The notes below the pieces were generated by a model, which was not told the origin of the DNA, searched no databases, and saw nothing but the letters and a program-made list of their open reading frames with translations. DNA of 58,903 nt from a virus (lineage: Duplodnaviria > Caudoviricetes), in IMG/VR virus record IMGVR_UViG_3300025066_000029, positions 1-58,903 of that record; one strand, given 5' to 3'. The translations under genes and the position numbers were made by a program. Each line of letters opens with the position of its first letter. Position 1 is the first letter of the stretch. Shown one piece after another: positions 33,946 to 39,505 of the stretch.

Positions 33946-34220
33946 GTTGTGCTCAAAGTATACACTTAATGATTAATAGTATTCATGCAAGGTTGACAAC
34001 TTGCCCCAAAAGTCCAACAGTAACCCTTTAATAAGAGTTGTCAACTCTTTAGGGAAGGCTGGTAAATATCCATCGTTAAACTTAAGGCTGGTGGAGGGAG
34101 GAATACTATTATTAATACCATAGCAAGATTTGCACCTTAGGGTGTAAGTCTTGTTTTTAGGTTTTCCCAATATCGCCTTAAATATTGGTAGTCAGAAGAA
34201 TAACCAATTAATATACCATT

Positions 34221-34505
34221 ATGATTCTTTTAAACAAGTTGGTTGTTAAGAATGGTGTTATGATTTCCACCCCAATAAAAAGGATAAGGTGGGATGGGCG
34301 CTATAAAACCCTAAAGGAAATCATTTCCGCGAATTTCTTAGTAGGGAAGAAATTACAACCTTTCACCATTAAAAATGGTGAAAATGTATTAGTGTTTAGT
34401 AAAACATTAACACATACACAATGTGACAAAAGTCACATGTTCTTTGTTTTCAAAGAACAAAAATTAGTAAGAAGTGCAAACAATTTATCTGGATTGTTTG
34501 CATAA
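34221..34505 (+). CDS. hypothetical protein
   Basis: 94-aa basic ORF. Confidence 0.4.
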   Translation: MILLNKLVVKNGVMISTPIKRIRWDGRYKTLKEIISANFLVGKKLQPFTIKNGENVLVFSKTLTHTQCDKSHMFFVFKEQKLVRSANNLSGLFA

Positions 34506-34662
34506 AGCATTTTGATAATTGGATTCCATAATCACATACTTGCCAATAGGTGGCTTGAGGGGGAGATAAAGGAATTGAGCTTTGAAAAGTGGGCTTTGAG
34601 TTTGGTCTTGTGATTAACCATCACATACCATTCTCTAAACCACCAATAATAAAACAAAATAC

Positions 34663-34727
34663 TCCTATCCAAGGACTGTAAAGACGACCGCTATTACACA
34701 GCTTGTCTTTGCCCTTCTTGGATAGGA
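34663..34727 (+). ncRNA. unnamed structured RNA, possible pseudoknot
   Basis: TCCTATCCAAGGA/TTCTTGGATAGGA 13-bp closing stem; crossing inner pairings CTGT/ACAG and AAAGACGA/TTGTCTTT. Confidence 0.5.
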
Positions 34728-34747
34728 TTTTCCAATTTTTCAAATAT

Positions 34748-34887
34748 GGCGAGATAGCGCAATTGGTAGCGCACTTGTTCATCGTAAACTGATGTACTAT
34801 AACTGATCATTGTAGTAATAGGTTGACTTAGGGTTGATCTCCTAAGTGATGAAGAAGAGGTTGGGGGTTCGAGTCCCCTTCTTGTCT
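34748..34887 (+). ncRNA. tRNA-like RNA with a 64-nt structured insert replacing the anticodon loop
   Basis: Acceptor GGCGAGA/TCTTGTC; D arm GCGC-AATTGGTA-GCGC; variable loop AGGTT; T arm GGGGG-TTCGAGT-CCCCT; extended stem CTTGTTCATC/GATGAAGAAG. Confidence 0.8.
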
Positions 34888-34890
34888 GCT

Positions 34891-34968
34891 CAAGGTGTAG
34901 GCTGTAAAGCTGAACAACGAGGCGTCATATACTCACGCCTACAAGGACATAAATGTCTGGAGACCTTG
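34891..34968 (+). ncRNA. unnamed multi-stem RNA
   Basis: CAAGGT/ACCTTG closing stem, GTAGGC/GCCTAC and GACAT/ATGTC inner stems. Confidence 0.45.
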
Positions 34969-35013
34969 TGGAGTTAAATAATTATTATTCACAAACCTAA
35001 AATATAAATTAAG

Positions 35014-35364
35014 ATGAAAGTACTTGTAAATACATGTTATGGTGGTTTTGGTTTTTCAGATGAATTCTGTATGCATTTAGAGCAACAGGATATAAGCCAA
35101 GATGAATGGGGTTATAGTCGAGATAATCAAGATGTAGTGACAGCTGCAGAAGCTTTTGGTTTAGAAGCTGCAAGTGGATGTTATTCAAGGTTAGCTGTTT
35201 TTGAAGTCACAGACGGTCTTGATTACTATGTTGATGAGTATGATGGAATGGAGGGATTAGAAGTCTTTCTTGCTGTGAGTATGAATGATCTTAAAACAGG
35301 TCTTAGTGATGAGCAGTTGAAATTAGCAGAGATTGCAGGAGTCATTAAGATCATCAAATCATAG
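35014..35364 (+). CDS. conserved phage hypothetical protein
   Basis: KVLVNTCYGGFGFS...EYDGME pattern familiar from phage early regions. Confidence 0.7.
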   Translation: MKVLVNTCYGGFGFSDEFCMHLEQQDISQDEWGYSRDNQDVVTAAEAFGLEAASGCYSRLAVFEVTDGLDYYVDEYDGMEGLEVFLAVSMNDLKTGLSDEQLKLAEIAGVIKIIKS

Positions 35365-35439
35365 TTATTAACTCTGTTATACTTCAGAGTGTTGAAAAAA
35401 GCAGTTGAGAGATTATTCACAAAACTAAAAATATAGATT

Positions 35440-35784
35440 ATGGTACAAGTAACCTTCGTAAAAGATGAGTCAGACTATGATGATAGCTATCGTGTTATTG
35501 TTAATGGTTATGATGTTGATGGAATTCAGATGAATAACATTGACAAATACACACAAGCACATATAGTATGTGCAGGTGTAATGCTTGCTTTTCATTGTGA
35601 TATTAATGACATTAATATCACGATTACAGGCGGTAAGAAAGAAATGCATTATCCAATTGAAGATATTCAAGCAATGGCTCCTCATATGAAGGACTATGCA
35701 CGACAATTGGGTAACTTTCATCAATACAATCAAGATCCCGGAGAAGTTCTTATGGACATGATGGCATCTGGTGTTGGTAATTAA
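35440..35784 (+). CDS. hypothetical protein
   Basis: 114 aa; shared TTCAC leader. Confidence 0.65.
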   Translation: MVQVTFVKDESDYDDSYRVIVNGYDVDGIQMNNIDKYTQAHIVCAGVMLAFHCDINDINITITGGKKEMHYPIEDIQAMAPHMKDYARQLGNFHQYNQDPGEVLMDMMASGVGN

Positions 35785-35895
35785 ACTTCTAAGCTTTTAG
35801 GGAGCTTGAGCTTAAAGAAACGTCTAAGGATGTGGATCAATCAAGCTCCCATTTTTACTCATAATTCTAAATTTCGTTCACTTAAAAATAGAAAC

Positions 35896-36129
35896 ATGAA
35901 AACAGAAGACATTAAATTTGTTGCAAAACAATACAGTGATGGTATCTACAGATTCATCATTGACAGACGTGGGGAGTACATTTACCTTTCTTGCGATAAT
36001 TATTATGGATTTGCATACATGTATGATTGTGTTCAATGTGAGCATCTTACCAAAGATCAAGACATGCATGAATACCTCAAACATCTTCAAGGCCAAAGGG
36101 AGAGAGAAATCTCTGCAATTGAGTCTTAA
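35896..36129 (+). CDS. hypothetical protein
   Basis: Likely start MKTEDIKF after a TTCACTTAAAA leader. Confidence 0.55.
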   Translation: MKTEDIKFVAKQYSDGIYRFIIDRRGEYIYLSCDNYYGFAYMYDCVQCEHLTKDQDMHEYLKHLQGQREREISAIES

Positions 36130-38275: not shown

Positions 38276-38305
38276 ATTATTTTTTCATCCATAAAATGAA
38301 TCAAC

Positions 38306-38452
38306 ATGAAAAGTCTATTATTAATCTTAAGTATTGCTATCTTGTCTGCAGGTTGTGCACCAACTACAGGTATTCAGACTGTGAAAAAGGTTAAGATACA
38401 GAAGAATGCTGGCTGTAAGGTAGCATTGACACCTCGGAAATATGTATACTGA
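38306..38452 (+). CDS. 48-aa lipoprotein, not in the ORF track
   Basis: MKSLLLILSIAILSAG-C lipobox. Confidence 0.65.
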   Translation: MKSLLLILSIAILSAGCAPTTGIQTVKKVKIQKNAGCKVALTPRKYVY

Positions 38453-38622
38453 TGAATAAATTATTTACATCTCCAGTAAGAATTGATCTTGAACTTAAGG
38501 TCAATGAGTGGTTGGAAGATAATCAAGGAATAAAAATTCTTGATGAATTTAATTACTTTGAAACTAATGGTAATTATGCAGTTGTGTTTTTGATAGAATC
38601 TATAGCACAGGTACAGAATTGA
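38452..38622 (+). CDS. 56-aa hypothetical protein, not in the ORF track
   Basis: TGATG coupling; MNKLFTSPVRIDLELKVNEWLEDNQG. Confidence 0.55.
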   Translation: MNKLFTSPVRIDLELKVNEWLEDNQGIKILDEFNYFETNGNYAVVFLIESIAQVQN

Positions 38623-38644
38623 TTGGTTTTAAGGTGAATGATGG

Positions 38645-38680
38645 TGTGGAGAAGGGCTTAGGCTCTTCTTCACATTTTTT
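38645..38680 (+). terminator. intrinsic terminator
   Basis: TGTGGAGAAGGGC-TTAG-GCTCTTCTTCACA followed by a T-run. Confidence 0.65.
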
Positions 38681-38704
38681 GTAAACAAGAAAAACAAGAA
38701 TAAA

Positions 38705-38854
38705 ATGAAGATACATTTTAACAGTTGGGTTATACACGGGCCTTGCCCCTCGTGTAATGCACCAGATTTTGATGGTATTTGCACATTTTGTGGTTGGGAT
38801 GCTACTGTAAGATATTTATTAACCTTTAAACAAAAAGAAATATGGAACCATTAA
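38705..38854 (+). CDS. 49-aa zinc-ribbon protein, not in the ORF track
   Basis: CPSC...CTFCGW. Confidence 0.5.
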   Translation: MKIHFNSWVIHGPCPSCNAPDFDGICTFCGWDATVRYLLTFKQKEIWNH

Positions 38855-39069
38855 CTTGGGTAATTATTAGTACTTTGTATATTGCTATAGGTATTCTGGT
38901 AACTTGGAAAAGTTATCATGATTTAGATGGTGGCATTTATGAAGTAGTTGAGGTCATATTATGGCCTATTGTAGTTTTTGTAATACTTCTTGGAATTCTG
39001 AGAACACTAATTCTCTGTAAGTGGAACAGTGTAGGTAAGGTTTTGAGGAATTTACGAAGATTCGGATAA
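38842..39069 (+). CDS. small membrane protein
   Basis: Two hydrophobic segments with an ILWP motif. Confidence 0.6.
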   Translation: MEPLTWVIISTLYIAIGILVTWKSYHDLDGGIYEVVEVILWPIVVFVILLGILRTLILCKWNSVGKVLRNLRRFG

Positions 39070-39076
39070 ATAGTAT

Positions 39077-39400
39077 GGGGCATATTTGGCATTTGACAGG
39101 TATGAATGAATAATAGGACAGCGGAGACACGTTATACATCTCCTAAATCATGGTAGCAACACTTTTAGACGTAGAATTATCTACCCTAACTTCAGACAAC
39201 ATCTTTGATGTTTTAGAAGCGGAGGCAGCTGATGCCTTTGTTACCCAATATGCTCAAGCAGCATAATCAGTACACGTTGTTTAGTTATTTCTAAGAGATA
39301 ACTTGGTGGATGCTCACTGTCACTGACGGTTGGCCCTAAAAGCTGTATAATCTTATTATTTTGCAATAAACTGGACGGGGTTCGACTCCCCAATGCTCCA
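39077..39400 (+). ncRNA. ssrA: tmRNA
   Basis: Acceptor GGGGCAT/ATGCTCC-A with G3:U70; 5' GGCATTTGAC motif; T arm GGGG-TTCGACT-CCCC; internal tag frame ending YAQAA-stop (39264-39266). Confidence 0.92.
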
Positions 39401-39406
39401 CAAGGT

Positions 39407-39478
39407 ACTGTCTTCATCTAACAGGAATAGGATCCCATTTTTCAATGGGAAATGCGAGTTCGAGTCTCGTAGGCAGTA
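39407..39478 (+). tRNA. tRNA-Glu(UUC)-like gene with a non-7-nt anticodon loop
   Basis: Acceptor ACTGTCT/AGGCAGT; D stem ATC/GAT; CCCAT-TTTTCA-ATGGG arm; T arm GCGAG-TTCGAGT-CTCGT. Confidence 0.7.
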
Positions 39479-39505
39479 CTATTTTTCACTTTTAAAATTA
39501 CAATT

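Follow-up and report, generated by a model that had tools for sequence, protein, structure and literature searches.

What does a phage genome that is otherwise tightly packed with genes carry in a segment of about 5.5 kb of which roughly half does not code for protein? The segment (33950-39480) lies in a virus of the Caudoviricetes, record IMGVR_UViG_3300025066_000029 of the IMG/VR database; the 58,903 nucleotides analysed here, called the window below, are the whole of that virus record (58.9 kb), the completeness of which is estimated at 59%. In a crude tiling with open reading frames (ORFs) starting at ATG on the expected strand, 47% of the segment is coding, compared with 87% for the rest of the record. 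It ranks among the least coding 5.5-kb intervals of the record, and no large gap in it opens to hidden coding under TGA=W or TAG=Q. An earlier note on this DNA had described the segment as an RNA island, about half non-coding, that holds a tRNA-shelled RNA, a transfer-messenger RNA (tmRNA) and an irregular tRNA, all on the + strand. The coding figures agree with the first part of this description and the matches of Rfam and ARAGORN with the second, as the Rfam search found four recognisable RNAs, all on the + strand, i.e.,

34748..34887, + strand: tRNA-shaped "shell" RNA of 140 nt, Rfam tRNA 42.2 bits, with acceptor, D and T arms intact.
37533..38283, + strand: divergent GOLLD RNA, with a 5' domain (~37533-37866), a linker and a conserved 3' domain (37867-38272).
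39077..39406, + strand: one-piece tmRNA with acceptor GGGGCAU/AUGCUCC, T arm, a tag frame of 31-32 codons and the 3' end ACAAGGU.
39407..39479, + strand: tRNA-shaped RNA in which the acceptor, D and T arms are perfect and the anticodon loop, UUUUCA, is of 6 nt (or 4 or 8).

This stretch is a genuine non-coding-RNA-rich part of the early-strand (+) gene block, and the view that it is a real RNA gene cluster centred on mimicry of tRNA and mRNA is supported. Our reading, to which we assign a probability of about 60%, is that of an early-strand RNA cluster in which a divergent GOLLD RNA, a long-tag tmRNA, two non-decoding tRNA shapes and a number of folded elements act on translation. The whole record contains only three TTCGA T-arms, those of the shell, the tmRNA and the unit at 39407-39479, and no ordinary tRNA; CCA is encoded in none of the three units. 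The gaps between the ORFs fold better than dinucleotide shuffles on the + strand, and the large gaps do so on that strand only (36130-36897, z -3.8 on the + strand vs -0.8 on the - strand; the GOLLD gap, z -3.0 vs -0.4).

A sister strain, locus L033, was retrieved by a metagenome scan with a 20-base GOLLD word. It is 95-97% identical to the window over 33785-34511, 34571-35012 and 35780-39498. Its DNA is a different one where the window has 34511-34571, 35012-35780 (with two ORFs) and 39498-39732, and the same joints are present in a DNA run. The unrelated replacement DNA occupies positions 6611-6866, 7306-7515 and 11253-12053 of L033. Two island ORFs are absent from this strain and others differ at 26/234, 68/189 and 18/318 positions; the gap 36130-36897 differs at 14/768. 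Judged from these exchanges, the small early ORFs would be cassettes that can be swapped, while the RNA genes on either side are conserved. Substitutions were counted in the folded non-coding regions (32, with the GOLLD linker left out). Sixteen of the 21 stem substitutions keep their pair on the + strand, a number reached in 0 of 2000 random placements (mean 9.7, maximum 15); in the control on the - strand, pairs are kept in 10 of 20, as is reached in 260 of 2000 simulations. For the covariation that the earlier note had proposed to look for there is evidence, in the form of structure-preserving changes between the window and L033.

The tmRNA (39077-39403) matches Rfam RF00023 with 37 bits (E 3.5e-12). 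Its acceptor stem of 7 bp, GGGGCAU with AUGCUCC, includes the G3.U70 pair (G39079.U39397), and its T arm is GGGG-UUCGACU-CCCC. The tag frame after UAGAC reads VELSTLTSDNIFDVLEAEAADAFVTQYAQAA followed by a stop, i.e., 31-32 codons with the hydrophobic end YAQAA-UAA, where the resume codon was set by analogy and not by mapping; a typical bacterial tmRNA tag has ~10 codons. From the tag stop to the tRNA-like domain there are ~100 nt, and the pseudoknot columns of the RF00023 model align poorly. The gene starts 8 nt after a stop codon, ends 3-6 nt before the 5' end of the tRNA-like unit and is identical in L033 (0/337 differences).

To place this tmRNA among others, the lineage of its carrier has to be considered. 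The left arm of the record (- strand) contains portal and major head protein genes, and the right arm (+ strand) genes for a DNA polymerase, a helicase and a RIIA-like protein. The major capsid protein matches 116 phage records, every one with less than 60% identity, and the best match is Flavobacterium phage FpV4 (26.6%). The matches include Bacteroides, Flavobacterium and Cellulophaga phages and, therefore, the virus is a distant, uncultured, marine crAss-like phage, probably of Bacteroidota; the hosts named are Bacteroidota among part of the host list, and 47 of the 116 records name no host. The sequencing runs that contain the window are marine metagenomes from many studies, and in more than ten marine DNA runs variants are present (shares 0.2-0.96). 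A 1883-residue protein (14339-19990, - strand) belongs to no PHROG family and could be, by position, a candidate for the RNA polymerase that crAss-like phages typically package in the virion. Close relatives are scarce: a search of IMG/VR with two island proteins found none, a blastn search of the island against INPHARED phages gave no match, and the capsid retrieved only 4-7 loci from IMG/VR, the early regions of which have no protein in common with the island. The nearest of these, G001, has a capsid protein 66% identical to that of the window and is syntenic, and it has none of the island proteins. Its least coding 5.5 kb (35%) is also part of the early block, and the early strand is the one that folds better there. 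At 34595-39157 (- strand) of G001, gaps of 1677, 688 and 657 nt free of coding sequences (CDS) lie in the early block, with z values of -5.5, -3.4 and -3.4 against shuffles on the early strand; they match no Rfam family and are not similar to the window RNAs.

Counterparts of the tmRNA were found in three relatives. G001 has one scoring 30.2 bits (E 2e-8), with a tag frame of 29-30 codons. In FpV4 (NC_041872, 81947-82361, - strand; 58.2 bits) it has a 35-codon tag frame and sits, without annotation in the record, in a 2.3-kb gap. That of Cellulophaga phage phi14:2 (NC_021806, 4031-4502, + strand; 46 bits), also unannotated, has a 39-codon tag frame and lies inside the CDS-free interval 2904-4602. 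The tag frames of all four end hydrophobic and are read from a conserved resume context. Among the relatives, ARAGORN calls only the tmRNA of phi14:2, with a short tag, and a search of IMG/VR for the tmRNA-end pattern retrieved, besides G001, nothing but L032, a tRNA locus that is unrelated. For phi14:2, a transcriptome study describes a pair of long stretches between the genes g004 and g006 that are transcribed more than most genes, and RNAs from these regions that are present from the first time point without a later fall (bioRxiv 10.1101/2020.03.07.982082). By its coordinates, the phi14:2 tmRNA would lie in the interval reported there to yield abundant, persistent early RNA.

The earlier note had also pointed to an ornate RNA of ~740 nt. 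This RNA is real (~37533-38283), although not new: by its match to RF02032 it is a member of the known GOLLD class. The match extends over 37867-38272 (83.1 bits, E 6e-21), with all 416 model positions aligned. The gap of ~750 nt is ORF-free; its 3' half matches the model, and its 5' half folds into ~100 pairs. The GOLLD RNA of L033 scores 89.1 bits (E 1.8e-22). Nearly all of the 57/779 differences between the two strains across GOLLD are in the linker, and the 5' half is 99.7% conserved, its single change in 344 nt being U.G to C-G. In the 3' domain of L033 one hairpin is swapped for an unrelated hairpin at the same site. The cage of GOLLD has been solved as a structure and, to our knowledge, no function has been assigned to GOLLD. 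In the window, GOLLD is flanked by tRNA-like units, at a distance of 2.6 kb on the upstream side and 1.1 kb on the downstream side. GOLLD was absent from the matches in all four IMG/VR relatives and all three cultured phages searched, including phi14:2, a result that does not show absence because the control was unmatched too. Directly after GOLLD, ORF 38306-38452 (48 residues) starts with a lipoprotein-type signal (…LSAGC); from this ORF to the tmRNA, L033 has nearly the same ORFs (one difference, in ORF 38705-38854). The class is phage-borne, found near tRNA islands and forms a cage (PMC6582537; bioRxiv 10.1101/2024.12.08.627333), which is known as a 14-mer only from cryo-electron microscopy of env-38.

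Two units with a tRNA body do not look like decoding tRNAs: their arms are those of a tRNA, and the 7-nt anticodon loop of a decoding tRNA, with U33 and a purine at 37, is found neither in the shell nor in 39407-39479. The latter (39407-39478 for the Rfam tRNA match, 34 bits) sits ~3 nt behind the tmRNA, is unchanged in L033 (0/73 differences) and is called "tRNA-???" by ARAGORN, with a two-letter anticodon (tt), i.e., a 6-nt loop. The shell, the score of which compares with a gathering score of 29, has 78 nt where 11 are expected. Its minimum free energy (MFE) structure is the cloverleaf (z -3.4), with the anticodon helix extended to 10 bp and a three-way junction of ~58 nt with two hairpins in place of the anticodon loop. 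In L033 it scores 42 bits and has four changes, two unpaired and two pair-keeping in an insert hairpin. Seen by eye, the hairpin loops of the insert (34803-34809, CUGAUCA; 34834-34839, UUGAUC) could kiss via UGAUC/GAUCA, and AACUGAU occurs twice in it. In engineered tRNA scaffolds the cargo is reportedly carried in the anticodon stem, as it is in the shell.

A pattern of D arm and T arm with 65-95 nt between them gave at least 81 matches in IMG/VR, the shell of the window included, from at least 80 loci. Among the matches listed, 51 of 81 have at least 6/7 acceptor pairs; these are 45 distinct sequences, of which 23 have in common a hairpin followed by ACAGCAA, a motif that is absent from the insert of the window. 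Also among those listed, GUUACUU is common to ~5 insert-bearing units, and many viral contigs of the loci L110-L189 (e.g., L119, L137, L110, L133) contain one tRNA-shaped gene that is longer by 20-70 bases between its D arm and its T arm. In G001, a tRNA (51.8 bits) has its anticodon loop enlarged to 30 nt. A literature search on short inserts in phage tRNA genes returned nothing relevant by title or abstract. With the shell, a clean example joins a class of tRNA-framed phage RNAs that recurs and has apparently not been described. Two known RNAs were considered as models and set aside. A search for a theta- or hepatitis delta virus (HDV)-like ribozyme at the 3' end of the shell (cf. PMC10879173) gave 0 fits starting at 34870-34910, compared with 579 island-wide, with a loose descriptor of the nested double pseudoknot that is not the paper's own; no HDV family matched the island in Rfam at E<=5. 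The stable RNAs rnaC and rnaD of phage T4 (species 1 and 2) show a partial likeness only, as rnaC has the T arm and no full cloverleaf.

Assembled contigs of two metatranscriptome runs from different studies (X22 and X24) were compared with 31000-42000. All three contigs of X22 are on RNA genes, i.e., 36272-36407, 37549-37990 and 39091-39347, the last of which covers the tmRNA with 0 mismatches. In X24, five of the eight contigs are on GOLLD, and the others are at 33975-34088 (16 mismatches), at 38299-38334 and on an ORF outside the island. The GOLLD contigs of the two studies include 37549-37990, 37550-37855, 37839-37973 and 38038-38163. Their starts at 37549-37553 in both studies are at most a weak hint at the 5' end of GOLLD, because one contig has a loose end. 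No island ORF has a contig from X22 or X24, and for the shell and the ORFs this lack is uninformative either way. A pattern in which contigs of two studies fall on RNA genes is what stable RNAs would give. The transcripts that the earlier note had anticipated are, therefore, represented for GOLLD, the tmRNA and one unnamed element, by contigs that do not give ends, strand or level.

Apart from the four recognisable RNAs, the earlier note had listed at least five unnamed structured elements, which the z scores against shuffles and the changes between the strains corroborate. The features predicted in the gaps are

33946..34121, + strand: folded segment after ORF 33463-33945 (33946-34220, z -3.0 on the + strand and -1.6 on the - strand).
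34122..34160, + strand: terminator-like hairpin of 15 bp with a T run (stem 34122-34155).
34581..34744, + strand: unnamed folded element ending 3 nt before the shell (34506-34747, z -5.9 on the + strand and -4.9 on the - strand).
34889..34975, + strand: weak multi-stem segment abutting the 3' end of the shell (z -1.0).
35800..35855, + strand: long, terminator-like hairpin with a U run after ORF 35440-35784 (MFE -23 kcal/mol, z -2.9).
36135..36242, + strand: five-way junction RNA with four hairpins, two of them with AAUUAA loops (z -5.8).
36272..36395, + strand: end-paired RNA domain of ~125 nt (z -2.2; RNA-library contig 36272-36407).
36466..36496, + strand: hairpin with U8, a likely terminator by MFE, which splits the 768-nt gap.
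36501..36554, + strand: small element closed by ACACGG/CCGUGU (inner hairpin 36524-36543).
36566..36861, + strand: multi-helix RNA of ~300 nt, part of 36130-36897, with no Rfam match at E<=5.
37104..37172, + strand: long hairpin after ORF 36898-37086 (37087-37180, z -2.9).
38643..38685, + strand: terminator-like hairpin of 15 bp with a T run (38623-38704, z -5.8).

None of 200 shuffles is as stable as the five-way junction (36130-36260). Within this junction, and in the end-paired domain, a G.U pair has become A-U in L033 (36237 and 36380, respectively), changes that are meaningful on the + strand only. The 6-bp hairpin 36524-36543 shows three double compensations (C-G to U-A, G-C to A-U and A-U to G-C), and at 37113 U.G has become C-G. 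The record is mixed elsewhere: in 34581-34744 two of three changes keep the pair (A-U to G.U, C-G to U.G) and one breaks it, in 35800-35855 one keeps and one breaks, and the sole change in 36566-36861, at 36568, breaks a predicted pair. Taken together, at least five unnamed folded elements are predicted for which pairing is maintained between the strains. Of the two extra hairpins in the earlier note, the one at 34122-34154 survives as a terminator-like hairpin, which is missing from the variant strain (joint 34116->34177). The one at 33992-34045 is unsupported: the pairing of the inverted 10-mers 33992-34001/34036-34045 is absent from the MFE structure (33985-34060, z -0.85), and the sole strain change in them, at 34038, breaks the pair.

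The RNAs are interleaved with tiny ORFs that have separate leaders, and each RNA is positioned after an ORF. The motif TTCAY-N(2-8)-TAAAA has 15 matches in the window where 7.3 are expected (0/100 shuffles reach 15). Twelve of these are on the + strand at 33450-40311, of which nine lie 10-25 nt upstream of an ORF start and none before an RNA gene; the motif is a leader or promoter of early genes. None of the ten island proteins belongs to a Pfam family. At least three terminator-like hairpins divide the island. The earlier note's idea of a single co-expressed toolkit is not supported, in view of these terminators, the separate ORF leaders and the ORFs swapped around the RNAs in L033. Nor does any finding connect the RNAs with a role against tRNA-cleaving defences, the example given in that note.

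How such a cluster might work can be sketched. The RNAs would occupy 3'-untranslated-region (3'-UTR) positions and would probably be cut from ORF transcripts, since none has a leader of its own and each follows an ORF. RNase P makes the 5' ends of tmRNAs; the host enzyme would do so here, with further cuts at 39406/39407 and 34747/34748 after which short trailers would be left. The 3' ends would then be completed by exonucleases and the CCA-adding enzyme, the latter being proposed because none of the three units encodes CCA. It is plausible that tRNA enzymes carry out such processing. The resulting RNAs would be abundant and long-lived from the start of infection, as is reported for the phi14:2 interval. 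What they have in common would be to act on the translation machinery of the host: the tmRNA would release ribosomes that have stalled on host messages in decay and tag their products, GOLLD would assemble into its cage, and the tRNA shells would be processing or stability frames for a cargo or a neighbour.

Several observations weigh against this reading of the cluster. Both main Rfam assignments are below the gathering scores, with 37 bits vs 47 for the tmRNA, for which ARAGORN makes no call in the window, and 83 vs 150 for GOLLD. The record, of which an estimated 59% is present, contains no SmpB gene and, therefore, the tmRNA would need the SmpB of the host. In FpV4 and phi14:2 no tRNA-like unit is present behind the tmRNA, so that a role of this unit as a processing handle is not general. 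Besides the tmRNA, no island RNA has a detectable homologue among the relatives examined. When 12 RNA segments of the window were compared with four IMG/VR relatives by nhmmer, 11 were without match and the tmRNA segment matched G002 at chance level (E 0.68); of 8 segments compared with FpV4, phi14:2 and G001, the sole match was weak, to the tRNA-like domain of the tmRNA. Five of the 21 stem substitutions break pairs, and the covariation derives from one strain pair with structures predicted from the window sequence. The contigs are assembled sequences and not reads, do not show ends, strand or level, and come from RNA libraries, which can hold DNA. Finally, the early transcripts of phi14:2 have no common upstream motif (bioRxiv 10.1101/2020.03.07.982082), and the TTCAY..TAAAA leader may for that reason not be a promoter.

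A more modest explanation is that only GOLLD and the tmRNA are free-standing RNAs and that the unnamed elements are cis-acting parts of small early mRNAs, i.e., 3'-UTR stabilisers, terminators or leaders. Every unnamed element directly follows an ORF, several consist of a hairpin and then a U run, two segments (34888-34980 and 33985-34060) are not more stable than their shuffles (z ~ -1), and among the unnamed elements an RNA-library contig exists for a single one (36272-36407). That contig, however, matches the end-paired domain, the five-way junction (z -5.8) and the multi-helix domain of ~300 nt have a complexity well beyond that of terminators, and the 768-nt gap is 98% identical in L033 while the flanking ORFs differ by 11-36%. 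We regard this explanation as rather unlikely.

The remaining explanations concern the tRNA-shaped units. The shell would be a decoding tRNA gene with a short intron, one of many insert-bearing viral tRNA genes, if the ARAGORN result with introns allowed is followed, in which the shell is forced to tRNA-Arg(CCU) with a 58-nt intron and a long variable arm; insert-bearing tRNA-shaped units do recur in IMG/VR (51/81 among the matches listed). The forced loop UUCCUCC, however, has a C at position 37, which is a purine in tRNAs, 78 nt is far under the size of self-splicing group I introns, and the archaeal/eukaryal splicing endonuclease does not occur in bacteria. The ACAGCAA motif of the other inserts is missing here. 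Moreover, both stem changes in the insert keep pairing, and the insert is therefore selected as a structure. We consider the intron quite improbable. It is more doubtful still that the two units act as decoys or competitors for host enzymes directed at tRNAs, such as anticodon nucleases or tRNA-cleaving defences. They do have a complete tRNA body without a normal anticodon loop, the window has no ordinary tRNA, its three TTCGA T-arms are all in mimics, and phage tRNAs that evade anticodon nucleases have been published. Yet known anticodon nucleases recognise the anticodon loop, precisely the part that is missing, and no defence or counter-defence gene was identified alongside (Pfam, 0/10 island proteins). 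Similarly hard to accept is that the units are functionless remnants of a former tRNA array, even though 39407-39479 resembles a tRNA-Glu(UUC) loop minus one base and tRNA arrays are described as frequent in crAss-like phages (PMC7886860). Decay is not what the remaining three arms suggest, which are flawless in both units, nor the shell insert, the changes of which preserve pairing, and G001 independently keeps its tRNA with the enlarged loop.

The reading that we prefer remains that of the early-strand RNA cluster acting on translation. A bolder extension, which we consider speculative and improbable, would be that crAss-like phages of Flavobacteriia run a conserved early "RNA programme" of long-tag tmRNA and RNA-only devices from the first minutes of infection. 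In such a programme the tmRNA may take over ribosome rescue and append a ~30-residue acidic, helical peptide that does more than mark products for proteolysis, and the tRNA-framed cargo, the GOLLD cages and the RNAs of 125 and 300 nt may sequester factors of host translation or tRNA processing. If true, the shell would be the natural counterpart of the engineered tRNA scaffold and would represent a large phage RNA family not in print. For the cluster itself, the occurrence of GOLLD beside a tmRNA and non-decoding tRNA mimics in a crAss-like lineage brings the hypothesis of an action of GOLLD on translation into sharper focus. In addition, the published puzzle of the early long non-coding RNAs of phi14:2 is identified in part, a long-tag tmRNA being situated at one such interval. 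Since FpV4 and phi14:2 (the latter on Cellulophaga baltica) can be cultured, what a phage tmRNA does with a tag of 30-39 codons is open to a deletion test.

In comparison with known systems, the cluster combines familiar kinds of RNA, i.e., GOLLD-tRNA islands, phage tmRNAs and tRNA-like stable RNAs, in an unfamiliar way. Its GOLLD RNA agrees with the class in the full-length match of the 3' domain, the variable 5' domain, the size of ~750 nt, the phage carrier and the origin from aquatic metagenomes; it differs by its score (83 vs 150 bits), by the lack of a true tRNA nearby or in the linker, and by the crAss-like carrier, a literature search having found no paper that joins GOLLD and crAss-like phages. 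tmRNAs have been reported from 402 of 18,146 phage genomes (PMC9004378). The copy in the window resembles these in being one-piece, with the G3.U70 acceptor, the T arm and a tag frame with a hydrophobic ...AA end, and differs in the length of the tag (31-32 codons; 29-39 in the relatives) and in the tRNA-like unit ~3 nt downstream. The shell shares with T4 rnaC (139 nt) the setting in an RNA gene cluster, a tRNA T arm (CCGGG-UUCGAAU-CCCGG in rnaC) with acceptor end and the non-decoding character, whereas the best that rnaC attains is 17.5 bits, with tRNA-Sec (E 0.76), and the shell is a complete cloverleaf of 42 bits. Likewise, phi14:2 is a crAss-like phage of marine Flavobacteriia with early CDS-free intervals that are reported to give abundant, persistent RNA, and one of these contains a related tmRNA; beyond the tRNA-like domain of that tmRNA, it has no sequence similarity to the window. 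New are the crAss-like carrier of GOLLD, the long-tag tmRNA lineage, the clean tRNA shell, several unnamed conserved RNAs and the combination of all these in one early gene block.

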